A stretch of DNA of 64,000 bases from Alphaproteobacteria bacterium (GTDB taxonomy: Bacteria > Pseudomonadota > Alphaproteobacteria > UBA828), in NCBI GenBank assembly GCA_965237415.1, contig CBDEFM010000002.1, positions 2,784,001-2,848,000 on the forward strand, written 5' to 3'. Of the stretch, positions 20,782 to 53,914 are shown piece by piece. The position numbers and the translations under genes are program-made. The notes under the pieces are model-generated. The model was given only the letters and a program-made list of their open reading frames with translations, was not told where the DNA came from and ran no database searches. Positions within the stretch are counted from its first letter, which is position 1. Each line of letters starts with the position of its first letter.

Positions 20782-20818
20782 GATCCTCCCTCCGAGGACG
20801 TTGCAGCCCTGCCGCGCA

Positions 20819-21003
20819 GCCGGTCTCCTGGCTCGGGGTCATCGACGGGGCCCGGCCTTCCCGAATCCGAAGGATCAGTGGCCTGCGCGCTTGGCGCCCG
20901 GGTCCGTCTCGCCGCTCACAGTTGCGGGGGCAGCGCCGGACTGGCCCGCTCCTCTCCCAGATGCGGGCGTCACCGGCTTCCCACGCTGCGTGACGGCACC
21001 AAG
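20819..21003 (-). ncRNA. Cobalamin (B12) riboswitch upstream of the cobU-btuF-cobW-cobN-cobO-cobQ operon
   Basis: Minus strand shows GGGAAgccGGTG, TGCCCCCGCAACTGT, GCCACTG, GGGAAGGC and GAGCCAGGAGACC (B12 box) in canonical order, about 40 nt before the cobU ATG; ends approximate. Confidence 0.95.
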
Positions 21004-21034
21004 CTAACGCAGGCGCGCCCGGAATGCCACCTCG

Positions 21035-24577: not shown

Positions 24578-25885
24578 ATGGCCGTGGACCTGGCTCAGGC
24601 CGCGAAACAGAAGAAGATTCGCTATTTCCTGATCAGCTTCGTGGACCTGTTCGGCGTGCTCCGGGCCAAGCTCGTGCCAGCCGAGGCGATCGCGGGCATG
24701 CAGGAGGACGGCGCCGGCTTCGCCGCCTTCGCTGCCTGGCTCGACAGCAACCCCGCCGAGCCCGACATGCTGGTCAAGCCGGACCCCGCGACCCTGATCC
24801 AGCTGCCGTGGAAGCCGGAGGTCGGCTGGCTCGCCGGCGACTGCTGGATGAACGGCGAGCCGATGCCGGACACGCCCCGCCTCAAGCTCAAGAGCAAGCT
24901 CGACGAGGCGAAGAAGAAGGGCTACCGGGTCAAGACCGGCGTCGAGGCGGAGTATTTTCTCGTGAGCGCGGACGGCACCGCGATCTCCGACCCGCTCGAT
25001 ACCCAGGCCAAGCCCTGCTACGACCAGGCGGCCCTGATGCGCCGCTACGACGTCGTCTCGGAGATCTGCGACGCCATGCTGAGCCTCGGCTGGGGCCCCT
25101 ATCAGAACGACCACGAGGACGCCAACGGCCAGTTCGAGATGAACTGGGACTATGACGACGCGCTGATCACCGCCGACCGCCACGTCTTCTTCAAGTACAT
25201 GGTCAAGTCGCTGGCCGAGAAGCACGGTCTCCGGGCCACGTTCATGCCGAAGCCATTCTCCAACCTGACCGGCAACGGCTGCCACGCCCATGTCTCGATC
25301 TGGAACAATTCCGGCAAGAAGAACCTCTTCCACGATGCGAAGGGCGAGCTCGGCATATCTCAGCTCGGCTACCAGTTCCTCGGCGGCATCATCCACCGCG
25401 CGCCGGCGCTCTGTGCGATCTGGAATCCCACCGTCAACAGCTACAAGCGGATCAACGCGCCGGTCACCCTCTCCGGCGCCACCTGGTCGCCCAATCTGGT
25501 GGCCTACGGCGGCAACAACCGCTCGACCATGGTGCGTATTCCGGACGCGGGGCGCTTCGAGCTCAGGCTGATGGATGGCGCTGCGAACCCCTATCTGATG
25601 CAGGCGGGTGTCGTCGTCGCCGGGCTCGACGGCATCGAGAACGCGCTCGACCCCGGCGCGCGCACCGATCTCAACCTCTATGCCGAGGGCCACAAGCTGC
25701 GCGGCGCCCGCAGGCTGCCGCTCAACCTGCTCGACGCACTCAGGCTCTTCGAGAAGGACAAGGTCGTGCGCGCGGGATTTGGCGAGGGCTTCGTCAAGAG
25801 CTACGTCAAGCTCAAGACGAGCGAGTGGAACGAGTACGCAGGCACGATCTCGGATTGGGAGCGCAGCAGCACCCTCGATTGTTAG
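24578..25885 (+). CDS. glnT: Type III glutamine synthetase family, probable gamma-glutamylmethylamide synthetase (GlnT/GmaS)
   Basis: YFLISFVDLFGVLRAKLVP, GAGFA, KPCYDQ, DHEDANGQFE, TFMPKPF, GNGCHAH, SGATWSP, DGAANPYL. Confidence 0.88.
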   Translation: MAVDLAQAAKQKKIRYFLISFVDLFGVLRAKLVPAEAIAGMQEDGAGFAAFAAWLDSNPAEPDMLVKPDPATLIQLPWKPEVGWLAGDCWMNGEPMPDTPRLKLKSKLDEAKKKGYRVKTGVEAEYFLVSADGTAISDPLDTQAKPCYDQAALMRRYDVVSEICDAMLSLGWGPYQNDHEDANGQFEMNWDYDDALITADRHVFFKYMVKSLAEKHGLRATFMPKPFSNLTGNGCHAHVSIWNNSGKKNLFHDAKGELGISQLGYQFLGGIIHRAPALCAIWNPTVNSYKRINAPVTLSGATWSPNLVAYGGNNRSTMVRIPDAGRFELRLMDGAANPYLMQAGVVVAGLDGIENALDPGARTDLNLYAEGHKLRGARRLPLNLLDALRLFEKDKVVRAGFGEGFVKSYVKLKTSEWNEYAGTISDWERSSTLDC

Positions 25886-25915
25886 AGCGAGTCCGTCTTC
25901 GACGGACTCGCTCTA
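25883..25915. repeat. Perfect 15-bp hairpin (TAGAGCG...CGCTCTA type REP / bidirectional terminator)
   Basis: TAGAGCGAGTCCGTC-TTC-GACGGACTCGCTCTA, beginning at the glnT stop codon. Confidence 0.75.
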
Positions 25916-26028
25916 GGAGCCTGCGCCGCAGAACGCTTTTGGGCACCTTCAGACACCATAGGTAGTAGTAAAGAATGATCTGATTCCACTACATATAGTA
26001 GGCAATTTCCCACGGCGCAGGCTCCTAG
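25913..26028. mobile_element. Putative MITE-like mini-element with 12-bp terminal inverted repeats and CTAG flanks
   Basis: CTAG|GAGCCTGCGCCG ... CGGCGCAGGCTC|CTAG around an AT-rich interior; no transposase ORF. Confidence 0.6.
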
Positions 26029-26114: not shown

Positions 26115-26199
<85 letters not shown>

Positions 26200-26278
26200 A
26201 CGTGCGCCAGCCGCGGGACCCCTCATAGCGCGAGAGCGCGTGCAAGGCCACCGCGGTTGATAGCGTTCTTAACGCACA

Positions 26279-26701
26279 GGACCATGGTGCCGTGCACGGC
26301 GCGCGGCTCAAGCGCCAGGATCGCGCTATGAAAGGTGAGAGCGAAACGGCCACGGCAGGCGAAGTGAGCGAGCGTGCGCGATCCTATCCCGCGCGCGTGA
26401 CCTCATATCCCGCGCGCACGACCCTTCGGGCCTGCGCGGCTCAGGCACGCGTGAAATTATCCGATGCGCGTGACCTTGCAGGCATGCGCGACGCGGGCGC
26501 GCGCGACACCATCCCGCGGAATCCCTCTTAATCCCTCTTAATCCCACTTAATCCCACTTATCCCACTTATCCCACTTATCCCACTTATCCCACTTAATCC
26601 CACTTATCCCACTTAATCCCGGCAAATCCCGGATAGGAATTAAGTGTGGTCCGAGTGGGACGGCGGAGCCGGGCCGCGACCGTGGCGAGAGAAGCGGGCT
26701 A
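26279..26701. repeat. Dispersed intergenic element, copy 1, containing ATCCC(A/T)CTT(A) tandem array (26511-26635)
   Basis: Ungapped homology to 53705-53807 and 53839-53914; 13 ATCCC-initiated 9/10-nt units; left end not defined. Confidence 0.85.
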
Positions 26702-28261
26702 ACCGCCCGTTTCGAGAGAGAGCGTGCAGTCGAGCGCCCGCGCGAGCGCCTCGGCCGCCGACTGGGCCTTGCCCGATGCGAGCGGCCGGTGCCGAGCCGT
26801 GAGCCTCAGCACGAGGCGGCCGTCCTCTGCCGCGAGCTCGGATCCGTCGAGCACCGCCGGCTCCCCGCAAGAGAGCCGCTCGGCAAGCCTGAGCGTGAGC
26901 CCCAGCGCGCGGGCCTCGGCCTGCGCCGCCCGGGGCAGCAGCCGGTGCACGGCGCGATCCGCTTCGGCCGGCAGGCTCGACTTGTAGCGCGTGGCGACAG
27001 CAAGCGCGAGGAACACCCGGCCTGGATGGTCGATGCCGACGAAAGGCGCGCGGGAGATGCGCGCGAACGCGTCGGCCGCGCGGAGGTCCGGATGCTGGCG
27101 CCAGGCGATCTCGGAGAGGAAGGCCGCCGCCGGAAGCATGCTCCGATGCGCATCGAAAGCCGGAAGCGTCGCCCGCGCCAGCCATGACTCGAGCGCCTCG
27201 GCATAGGCGAGAGAGCGGCCATCCCGCCGGGCGATCGCCCGGCACGCGTCGTGGAGCGGATCGAGCGCACGGACCGCCGGCGGCAGCCTGTCGAAGAGCA
27301 GCCCCTCGCGCAGACCGAAGGCCGAGAACAGCACGTCGCTCGGCCGGGCGATCTTCAGCAACGCGATCAGAACCGCAGCGCCGCTCGGCACGGTCGCAAG
27401 CCGCCTGGGCCACATGCCTTCCGGCCCCGGCCGCAGCGTACTGGGATCGGCGTCGGCGAACTCTCCGGCGACCCTGCGGGCCTCGGCCGCCGCCATGCGA
27501 TAGTGATGGACGACGGCGATGGGATATTGCTCAGCGGCCATGTGGAGCCGGGCCAGCGCCCGCCACGCACCGCCGACGAGATAGACAGGCTCGCCCCGCA
27601 CCCGATCGAGCCAGGGCAGCGTTTCCAGCCGTTCCGCCGCGAGCGCGGTGCGGCGCCCGGGCTTGAGGCTGCCGAGGCGGAGCACGCCGAGCGGGAGAGT
27701 CGCGTGCTCGGCGAGCCGCCCCTGCTCGAGGCGCACCAGTTCCAGGCTGCCGCCGCCCAGGTCCGCCATCAGCCCGCTCGCCCCCGGGAAGGCCGAGACC
27801 ACGCCGAGAGCCGCATAGCGGGCCTCTTCCTCGCCCGAGAGGACCCTGAGCGAGAATCCGGTCTCGCGGGCCGCTGCCGTGCGGAAGCGCTCGCCGTCGC
27901 GCGCTTCGCGCACCGCCGCCGTCGTCACCGCGTCGAGCGGGGCCACCCCGAGTGCCGTTGCGGCCGCGGAGAACCGGCGCAGCGCATCGAGCGCGGGTTC
28001 CACCGCCTCGGGCGCGAGCGCCCCGGTCTCGGCAAGGGTGGCGCCGAGGCCGCACAGCTCGCGCTCGTTGAAGATGGGTGCCGGTGCCCGGTTGAGCCCC
28101 TCGAACACCACGAGGCGGATCGAGTTCGAGCCGACGTCGAGCACACCGTAAGGTGCGTCGGCTGCCGCATCGGCGCGCGCGCTGGCCAGGAAGCGCTCGG
28201 ACTCGACCGCGAGCGTCGCCGGGTCGGCCGCGAGTTGGGACGCGCCCTGCTGTTGCGTCAC
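26699..28261 (-). CDS. ppx: Exopolyphosphatase Ppx/GppA
   Basis: [42 protein letters not shown]. Confidence 0.94.
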
Positions 28262-33777: not shown

Positions 33778-33842
33778 CGGCGTGCAGCGACTATATTGCA
33801 GTGCAGCATCATGTTGCAGTGCAATATAGTCGCTGCACGCCG
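33778..33842. promoter_or_regulatory. Near-perfect 65-bp palindrome, probable PhaR operator
   Basis: 23-bp perfect arms CGGCGTGCAGCGACTATATTGCA / TGCAATATAGTCGCTGCACGCCG with repeated TGCA, about 60 nt upstream of the phasin start. Confidence 0.7.
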
Positions 33843-33927: not shown

Positions 33928-33999
33928 GCCGCCGTAGCTCAGGGGTAGAGCACTCCCTTGGTAAGGGAGGGGTCGGAAGTTCAATTCTTCCCGGCGGCA
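33928..33999 (+). tRNA. tRNA-Thr(GGT)
   Basis: GCCGCCGTAGCTCAGGGGTAGAGC, anticodon arm CTCCC-TTGGTAA-GGGAG, GTTCAATTC; followed by CCG instead of CCA. Confidence 0.93.
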
Positions 34000-38913: not shown

Positions 38914-38934
38914 GGACCCGCTTGGCGGCGGGCT

Positions 38935-38990
38935 ACTTCTGATTCCGCGCCCGTTCCGGGCGACTTCTGATTCCGGGCCCGTTCCGGGCG
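38935..38990. repeat. 28-bp tandem duplication
   Basis: ACTTCTGATTCCG(C/G)GCCCGTTCCGGGCG twice, one mismatch. Confidence 0.85.
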
Positions 38991-39088
38991 ACACCTGTTG
39001 TGAGGCCCCGGCGGCGATGCTAAAAGCCGCGCCGGCAGCGGAGAAGACGTCGCGCGCCGAAGCATATGGGTACTCAAGGAATAGCGCG

Positions 39089-52561: not shown

Positions 52562-53635
52562 GTGAATGACATGGTCAGCTTCGGCTTGTTTTGTCTCATG
52601 GGCTATCGGGACCGGCGGAGCCCGGTCTCCGAGGTGCTCGGCAACGCGGTGCAGATGGTGCAATGGGCGGAGGAGGCGGGCTTCGAGGCAGCGTGGTTCG
52701 CGGAGCACCACTTTTCCAACTATTGCGTCTGCCCCTCGCCGCTGCTGATGGTCAATCACTGCGCGGGGCGCACCACGCGGATCAAGCTCGGGCCCGCGGT
52801 GATCGTGGTGCCGCTCTATCACCCGGTCCGGCTCCTTGCCGAGATCGGCATGACCCAGGCGCTCTTGGGCGAAGAGCGCTTCCTGCTCGGGCTCGGCAGC
52901 GGCTACCAGCCCTACGAGTTCGAGCGTTTCGACGCCGATCTCGGCCAGTCCAAGGCGCAGCTGGAGGAGTTCCTCGCGCTCATGGATCGGGCCTATGCGA
53001 ACGAGACTTTCACCTTCGACGGCGACTTCACCGCCTTGCCCGAGACCAATATCAGCACGCGCCCGCCGGGCGGCGTGCCGCCGATCTGGGTCGCGGGCGA
53101 TTCCGAATCGACGCACAGGCTCGCGGCACAGCGCGGCTTCGTGCCGATCATCACCGGCCGCTGGTTCGGCGCCGACTACCTGGCCGAGCAGCGCGAGCGC
53201 ATCGACGCGTCCTACGCCGCCGAGGGGAGGGGCGGGGAGGCCCACGAGCTCGGGATTCTGCGCTTCGTCTGCGTGACCGAGAGCGACGAGGAAACGCTGG
53301 ACTACCTGATCAATGCCCGCCAGCAGATGCGCTTCGCCGCGGCGCTCCGCAACCGGCAGGAGGCGATGGACGGCGGCATGCTCATCGAACGTCCGTTCTC
53401 CGGCGAACCGCCGCTGGAGGAGATGGCCGCGAACCTGCCGGTAGGCGATGCGGCCACGGTCACATCCAGGCTCGCCGCCGACATCTGCGCCTCCGGCGCG
53501 AGCCATATGATGCTGAACATCCAGGCGGCGGGCTCCACCATGGCGCAGGCCGAGCGGACCATCCGAGCCTTCGCCAGCGAGATCAGGCCCGCCATTGAGC
53601 GCGCGCTTGCCGAGGATCGAGGCGCCGCACCTTAG
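52562..53635 (+). CDS. Luciferase-like (LLM) flavin-dependent oxidoreductase
   Basis: AEEAGFEAAWFAEHHF, PSP, TTRIKLG, HPVRLLAE, GLGSGY, PPIWVA. Confidence 0.9.
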   Translation: MNDMVSFGLFCLMGYRDRRSPVSEVLGNAVQMVQWAEEAGFEAAWFAEHHFSNYCVCPSPLLMVNHCAGRTTRIKLGPAVIVVPLYHPVRLLAEIGMTQALLGEERFLLGLGSGYQPYEFERFDADLGQSKAQLEEFLALMDRAYANETFTFDGDFTALPETNISTRPPGGVPPIWVAGDSESTHRLAAQRGFVPIITGRWFGADYLAEQRERIDASYAAEGRGGEAHELGILRFVCVTESDEETLDYLINARQQMRFAAALRNRQEAMDGGMLIERPFSGEPPLEEMAANLPVGDAATVTSRLAADICASGASHMMLNIQAAGSTMAQAERTIRAFASEIRPAIERALAEDRGAAP

Positions 53636-53914
53636 CCCGCATTTGTTACCGTGGTCTGTGCGCTGGTCTGCCGCGCCCACGACCCTTCGGGCGTGCGCGA
53701 CCCCGGACCTTGGTGCGGTTCTCGGCGCGCGGCGCCTGCGCCAGGATCGCGCCATGCAGCACGAGGACGAGGGGATCATGGCAGACGAGATGAGCGGGCG
53801 TGCGCGACATCCCACTTAATCCCACTTAATCCCGGCGAATCCCGGACAAAAATTGTGCTCTGTCCATGTGGGACTGCGGAACCGGACTGCGAAATTGATC
53901 AGAAATGCAGGTTA
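53633..53914. repeat. Dispersed intergenic element, copy 2, with imperfect terminal inverted repeats and a 4-unit ATCCC array
   Basis: Ends TAGCCCGCATTT / AAATGCAGGTTA; homologous to 26279-26701. Confidence 0.85.

Follow-up and report, generated by a model that had tools for sequence, protein, structure and literature searches.

Dispersed repeats at unrelated stop codons in an alphaproteobacterial genome: likely deletion derivatives of a terS transcription unit from a domesticated Mu-like system

In a 64,000-nucleotide stretch of alphaproteobacterial DNA (the window), two unrelated genes, ppx and prfB, end within similar intergenic sequence, and the question raised by this locus is what kind of element reaches exactly to both stop codons. 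The likenesses on which the original prediction of a dispersed element rested were reproduced throughout, with 78/103 identical positions in the core (26279-26381 versus 53705-53807), 51/76 at the right end (26626-26701 versus 53839-53914), 26/28 in a shared hairpin block, and an equal distance from the last ATCCC unit to the ppx TAG (26699-26701, minus strand) and to the prfB TAA (53912-53914, minus strand). Iterated nhmmer searches of the genome containing the window (G000; 4.75 Mb, 67% GC, 96% complete) returned 79 core and 85 right-end matches, so that the likeness between copy A (beside ppx) and copy B (beside prfB) is far beyond chance. The union of two core searches comprised 86 matches, of which 66 lie no more than 1.5 kb from an ATCCC array, nine are copies whose array is variant, broken or missing, five head phage late genes and six are chance matches inside genes, giving about 75 cassette copies with a median nearest-paralogue identity of 85% across the promoter. 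Each cassette is built from an activator dyad, a -10, an ATG, terS or a deletion remnant of it, hairpins, an ATCCC array of 10-bp period and, often, an IS1380-type end; no description of such a family was found in the openly accessible literature searched. The features of the two copies and their flanks, in window coordinates, are as follows.

26118..26199, minus strand: tRNA gene (RF00005), host flank upstream of copy A
26270..26271, no strand: left TA of copy A, within its YTAR target (TTAA, 26269-26272), from the empty site in G019
26277..26292, plus strand: 16-bp imperfect dyad of copy A, putative activator site, centre at -43.5 from the A of the ATG at 26328
26316..26321, plus strand: -10-like hexamer CAGGAT of copy A (A2 and T6 kept), without a canonical -35 (copy alignment, sigma-70 scan)
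26328..26531, plus strand: ATG of copy A at the inferred +1, then a 67-codon remnant frame from the 5' end of a type-B terS
26411..26438, plus strand: shuffled hairpin module of copy A (genome matches near core or array)
26511..26630, plus strand: 13-unit ATCCC array of copy A, period 9-10
26631..26665, plus strand: AT-rich stretch and linker behind the array of copy A
26666..26701, minus strand: IS1380-type terminal repeat and right TA of copy A
26699..28261, minus strand: ppx, convergent with copy A (PF02541, PF21697; Pfam Ppx-GppA)
53633..53665, plus strand: left TA and degenerate IS1380-type left end of copy B (empty site in G014, sequence)
53672..53699, plus strand: hairpin module of copy B, here upstream of the promoter
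53703..53756, plus strand: dyad (53703-53718), -10 (53742-53747) and ATG (53754) of copy B
53754..53819, plus strand: 21-codon terS remnant of copy B
53809..53843, plus strand: 4-unit ATCCC array of copy B
53844..53914, minus strand: linker, degenerate IS1380-type right end and TA of copy B, the last forming the prfB stop TAA
53912..54877, minus strand: prfB, convergent with copy B (PF03462, PF00472)

The array of copy A is the longest in the genome, the usual number of units being four or five. The permuted order noticed for the hairpin block holds, since the block lies within the body of copy A and upstream of the promoter in copy B, and 45/46 matches to this module in the genome are no more than 600 nt from the nearest core or array. 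Elsewhere in the window, a 28-bp tandem repeat at 38929-38992 resembles the cassette hairpin modules with no core nearby, a near-perfect 32-bp inverted repeat (94%) at 33778-33842 lies just upstream of a tRNA gene at 33928, and a cobalamin riboswitch occupies 20801-21005.

Whilst the likeness used to delimit the element is real, its true start lies earlier than first placed, at the TA at 26270-26271 in copy A and at 53633-53634 in copy B. Its right end does reach the stop codons, but the last ~34 nt are a separate IS1380-type end that is present at 184 places in the genome, a stand-alone 269-bp MITE included. That the family is mobile and non-autonomous is supported by insertion at TA within YTAR and by empty sites: in G014 the prfB site is empty, two stop codons overlapping there on TTAG, and in G019 a single TA is joined straight to the ppx stop with no element. 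At prfB a cassette is found in G000 and in the sister species G004, G020 has a cassette with a different array, and G017 and G019 have none; the ppx site is filled in G000, G004 and G017, and holds a remnant end in G014 and another repeat in G020. Since 41 of the 44 sites that can be paired between G000 and G004 are common to both (29/73 G004 cores are unpairable), most insertions are old. Other insertion sequences have landed inside cassette copies at G000 C2:1800655-1805427 and C2:1991880-1992870.

The terminal repeat is of IS1380 type. It adjoins NF033539 IS1380-family transposases in three other genomes (G077, G365 and G141), and in G011, G014 and G006 it forms the boundaries of whole IS1380 elements whose flanks are TA, mostly within YTAR. 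As originally stated, the element encodes no transposase, NF033539 being absent from inside any copy, and a cognate enzyme was not found in G000 among repeated sequences, between paired ends or among IS1380 frames; the two full IS1380 frames of this genome belong to another subgroup (39-40%) and have different ends. Among paired ends the inner bases are complementary in 35/40 and the 4-bp flanks identical in 4/40, for which reason a TA duplication fits. The full right end is kept in 33 copies and a left repeat lies within 300 nt in 10/86; copy B has both terminal repeats and copy A only the right one. YTAR stands exactly 7 nt before the core in 6/86 matches (p=2e-6), where the promoter starts CCCGGA like the IS end. 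Compared with a MITE in the strict sense, the family has the TA duplication, the empty sites and the ends shared with an IS, but lacks inverted repeats at both ends; compared with a member of the IS1380 family, it has neither a transposase of its own nor the 4-5 bp target duplication that characterises that family. The stand-alone 269-bp IS1380-ended MITE (G000 C2:588862-589130; L012:462-731) has about 30 copies, plus 94 unpaired ends, and no match in the plasmid collection.

The coincidence with stop codons proves ordinary, a side effect of TA targeting. Right ends fall exactly at a stop more often than stand-alone ends do (14/33 against 36/158, p=0.028), and 15% of YTAR sites outside coding interiors are at a predicted stop by our own gene calls. 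The dedicated targeting of stop codons that had been proposed is not supported, as 19/33 right ends are not at a predicted stop. The right end starts with G or A and hence, after TA, rebuilds TAG or TAA: in copy A the TA and first base G make the ppx TAG, and at the left end of copy B TA and G make the TAG of a luciferase-like gene. Ends at stop codons thus follow from YTAR targeting together with survival at gene ends; the ends of CIR and ERIC repeats also often supply stop codons. A different TA-bounded palindromic repeat, at window 25882-25916, gives the TAG of a glutamine-synthetase-like gene, and repeats similar to it occupy the ppx stop in G020.

The core, which went unrecognised in the original prediction, has the architecture of a phage Mu-type late promoter. 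Across 64 aligned copies its most conserved part is the dyad, with consensus CCG(G/C)ACCATGGTGCGG, and the conserved letters are those of this 16-bp dyad, a CAGGAT-type -10 (A2 and T6 kept) and an ATG that stands at a fixed place at the core end in 61/77; a sigma-70 scan of the core gave no canonical sigma-70 promoter and no canonical -35. Counted from the A of the conserved ATG, taken as +1, the dyad is centred at -43.5, which is the centre given for the dyads of the Mu C site (PMC2582627) and the Mor site (PMC4390567). We infer a leaderless start, with +1 at the ATG. The same core, with the ATG at the same offset, lies upstream of a DUF5675-like lysis/holin unit, terL, portal and protease-scaffold-capsid units, opening the gene itself in the lysis and terL units and preceding it by a short leader frame in the portal and protease units. 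At 11 of the 16 terL loci inspected the motif stands no more than about 110 nt upstream of the gene, the other five including two prophage-type operons, and in G000 genes for a repressor, Gam-like and GemA-like proteins and a late activator (phrog_836) adjoin the lysis unit.

In long copies the core ATG opens a frame of 230-320 codons that matches PF11985 (Mu gp27) and phrog_426 (small terminase). G000 has ten such TerS frames, nine beginning at the core ATG and one split by an IS, and 9/10 exceed the Pfam cut-off; both window copies hold remnants only. Four copies are of type A and keep an SRSAVGRY helix, type B has lost the recognition helix, and 50/56 short copies align best to type-B terS starts. 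By this alignment, copies A and B are deletion derivatives of the terS unit, of 67 and 21 codons respectively, and the alternative envisaged at the outset, of a decayed protein-coding family or a known IS, is thereby partly realised: the body is a deleted terS and the ends are IS1380-type. The terS paralogues are weakly constrained (dN/dS 0.36-1.16). A model of TerS (pLDDT 74, pTM 0.41) gave generic helical matches only in a fold search, no sequence relative was found in the PDB at E<0.001, and the phage collection held two partial DUF3486 matches. In G003 the ancestral order is kept, with terS before terL (L157:6108-6485) and no array, and no terS was found beside terL in G000. The G003 operon terS is without the N-terminal DNA-binding part, which is reminiscent of RcGTA TerS; in G007 (L314) a divergent gp26-terS pair has an IS1380-type end directly behind it, a possible model of the capture step.

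The late genes that share the promoter are distributed with it across the genus. Among 20 congeners gp27 was found in 17, capsid in 17, portal in 18, TerL in 16, the activator in 15 and the tail tube in 14, and the promoter motif occurs in 17, the same genomes as gp27 and capsid, with 10-57 matches each; G012, G015 and G016 are without motif, gp27, capsid and TerL, and only one of 20 more distant genomes has the motif, once. The congeners share kinship, so that this co-occurrence of motif and genes is not independent. The particle genes mostly have one orthologue per congener (about 82% for TerL) and gp27 has 1-15 matches. Against G000, dN/dS is 0.04-0.13 for capsid, 0.22-0.36 for TerL and 0.10-0.25 for portal, with pairwise dS similar to that of prfB, as would be expected of genes that are vertically inherited under purifying selection. 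The tail operon of G000 lies at C2:1.12-1.13 Mb, its head-tail operon being split, and the tape-measure gene is short (258 aa); in congeners the capsid gene is followed by the tail tube at a distance of about 3 kb. An identical 2.7-kb duplication (G000 C2:23040-25782 and C2:1132026-1134768) splits the head-tail operon and is either a real rearrangement or an assembly error, and a frame behind the capsid gene (L010:9330-10904), 75-88% conserved in three congeners, has no PHROG match. PF10123, PF08765, PF04233 and PF10145 gave no match in G000, blanks that are uninformative because PHROGs detect the protease, activator and tape measure.

At C1:186-213 kb in G002 lies a Mu-like prophage that retains A- and B-like genes and has a homologous palindrome before its protease; its identity with the domesticated genes is 44-80%, and it is possibly a sister of the donor. 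In tblastn searches its A- and B-like proteins gave no match in G000 (96% complete), where the only PF09299 match sits in an IS-like fragment. Viral contigs gave four motif matches, all without -10/ATG and array, and 16 capsid relatives (one at 94%, the rest at 35-43%), none with the motif. Contigs from three RNA runs cover the capsid operon in low patches only, and such contigs give no level, start or strand.

The arrays are regular: 171/237 spacings are 10 and 65/237 are 9, and 62/64 arrays keep at least four units. What stays constant is one CC(A/G)(C/G) per turn, a spacer of A/T and, behind the array, an AT-rich stretch, and to judge from these letters the array is built like a site around which a ring of protein wraps. 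Arrays of period 10 also lie behind terS in most of the congener copies that were examined, either continuing the frame or past the stop codon, and their units read ATCCCACTTA, TTGGGCCACT, TTATCTCGGC or TTTGTGCCAG. When 49 of the 51 rows are placed in a tree, unit type goes with TerS lineage, two phage rows without a long match having been dropped and the 'none' array labels reflecting a crude count. PMC7947584 describes TerS as setting packaging starts through pac sites, and the array may be a TerS-wrapped, pac-like site from which packaging starts at about 65 chromosomal places, a reading that we consider possible but doubtful. Behind the terS genes of the G002 prophage and of the G003 operon no array was found, and the array is therefore not an inherited pac site; its units also change while the TerS recognition helix hardly does. 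Even spacing of copies, a sign of genome tiling, was not found (CV 1.16, null 0.98), and this random spacing, like the array-free prophage terS, is against or neutral for pac. G012, which lacks both the promoter motif and the head genes, has two array matches.

The array might instead be an operator of MraZ, the host cell-division repressor, wrapping it to silence or sense the cassette, or the copies titrating MraZ upon induction. Read on the minus strand it is GTGG-N6-GTGG, which agrees with the general MraZ pattern in PMC12957436, a GTG(G/T)-N6 box with four boxes per octamer; most arrays have 4-5 units, the mraZ promoter of the genus carries RTCCCA and then CCCGG units at period 10, and arrays are over-represented among the top matches of a matrix built on that promoter. 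However, at the place where the native box, CCAT, has its T, 91/91 native units have T or G (a result of the way of picking) and the arrays have C in 80% of 299, one fixed difference in each box. The arrays score 8-15 bits against 42.7 for mraZ, which was in the training set, and fall below several unrelated sites; the native box is constant whereas array units vary between lineages. We consider a MraZ operator unlikely. Within the genus MraZ itself (L277-L295) is 48-98% identical, its box and DRKGR motif being constant.

Between orthologous G000 and G004 copies, promoter letters differ at 16/725 positions and spacers at 47/625 (p=4e-6; 25/40 pairs that are at least 85% alike), a difference with the same direction across all 40 pairs, and ATCCC letters differ at 1/360 against 7-13% beside them (24/34 pairs), a count biased by the arrays having been found by these letters. 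Promoter and array letters are in this way 3- to 20-fold more conserved than their neighbours, a pattern that gene conversion among copies could also give. Recombination between copies is frequent: 15/40 pairs fall under 85% and are mosaic or gapped, several with visible switch points, and in four G004 copies the two flanks map to two different G000 copies, a rearrangement at the element.

Another reading is a neutral or selfish account, in which an IS1380-derived MITE captured a terS unit once and multiplied, most copies being junk homogenised by conversion and only a few type-A terS mattering. The mosaic orthologues and the four copies with exchanged flanks speak for it, as do the relaxed constraint on terS, the random spacing, the lineage-wise clusters in the TerS tree, the range of 10-57 copies per carrier and the other IS inside copies. 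We nevertheless think it rather improbable as a whole, since in non-mosaic pairs the motif letters (2.2% and 0.3%) lie below synonymous divergence (dS 0.07-0.16), the sharing of nearly all pairable sites makes the copies old and yet they keep promoter and array, and the arrays have a floor of four units. Alternatively the copies might work through transcription only, upon induction soaking up activator to set a threshold or sending antisense transcripts into ppx, prfB and other convergent host genes. This would suit the conserved promoter letters and the 29/63 copies that lie between convergent genes, against 239/1628 gaps genome-wide (15%), but the gene ahead is convergent in only 36/63 (p=0.31 against one half), stand-alone MITEs also favour convergent gaps (7/31), and the array is left unexplained; we regard the proposal as improbable. 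Least likely by far is the alternative that the original prediction allowed for, a non-coding structured RNA or an element of the 3' UTR under selection at stop codons. Although local hairpin modules exist, and the element follows ppx and prfB immediately, no terminator-like site having been found, so that transcripts may run into it, folding is no better than that of shuffles (z 0.09 and -0.61), an Rfam search gave no match, the conserved letters are those of a DNA dyad, a -10 and an ATG, and the order of the modules is shuffled.

The reading we favour is that the repeats arose by deletion from the terS transcription unit of a domesticated Mu-like phage system; it is likely as regards their identity and co-regulation, with the pac step set apart. 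In the proposed mechanism, an IS1380-type transposase acting in trans would have spread the terS unit. To the right it would have used a true end, to the left a second end or, as a look-alike, the CCCGGA with which the promoter starts; IS1380 members are described in PMC9330008 as capturing neighbouring DNA through a look-alike second end. That the spread occurred in this way is probable; among the YTAR sites at which insertion is tolerated stop codons are the most frequent, and the end restores TAR there, which would account for the hits at stops. We hold it likely that the copies would be silent until the Mor/C-type activator is made and would then fire with the particle genes, and that type-A copies supply TerS, as no terS lies beside terL. 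If the pac reading is right, the short copies would serve as packaging start points, from which particles would take chromosomal DNA at about 65 places. This last step would make the system a Mu-derived gene transfer agent whose choice of DNA is written in the host chromosome as about 65 activator-controlled, TerS-wrapped pac cassettes, which we put forward as a tentative and rather unlikely possibility. If true, it would amount to built-in lateral transduction, particles packaging the host DNA neighbouring the cassettes; the cassettes would be selfish, each promoting its own packaging, and recombination at them would be explained. The prevailing view is that known gene transfer agents package at random, their TerS having lost specificity; a domesticated Mu-like system that multiplies a specific cassette of terS, promoter and array would add a second path by which phages become gene transfer agents. 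Pac aside, tens of phage late promoters per genome would stand under one phage activator in 17 species, and the cassettes mark rearrangement breakpoints whether or not they are pac sites.

In relation to known systems, the cassette behaves as an IS1380 module without a transposase would, and its regulon is that of a Mu derivative resembling a GTA; we class it neither as a strict MITE, nor as a member of IS1380, nor as an established component of a GTA. TA-ended small intergenic repeats are well known, and Correia/NEMIS, ERIC, RUP and Caulobacter CIR elements are likewise described, in PMC2229807, as short, non-autonomous and intergenic with TA at their ends. The cassette differs from these 100-200 nt stem-loop units in that it originates from a regulated gene and its folding does not exceed chance. 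Modules mobilised by IS1380 elements (ISEcp1, ISPme1) and IS-derived MITEs resemble it in having an IS1380-type terminal repeat and no transposase inside; here, unlike in the ISEcp1 and ISPme1 modules, the cargo is a phage promoter, terS and an array with no transposase in the module, and in contrast to the IS1380 family the duplication looks like TA and many copies retain one end or none. The pac sites of P22 and SPP1 lie within their terS genes, SaPI satellites redirect TerS, and Mu has its own pac at its genome end. Compared by description, the array shares with the P22 and SPP1 sites a repeated DNA signal at the terS 3' end and an AT-rich stretch after it, and differs in that the related prophage terS is without an array. 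With agents of the RcGTA type the predicted particle system shares head, tail and lysis genes kept by the host in several loci, vertical inheritance, purifying selection and a short tape-measure gene, and no Mu transposase was found. A close parallel for the core is with the late and middle promoters of Mu (Plys, PI, PP, Pmom and Pm, with activators C and Mor), which likewise stand before lysis and head operons and combine a 16-bp imperfect dyad at -43.5 with a -10 but no canonical -35; a late activator is encoded here too. The dyad sequence here differs from that of Mu and +1 is placed at the ATG, and where Mu has four late promoters within one genome, about 80 copies are here distributed across a chromosome.
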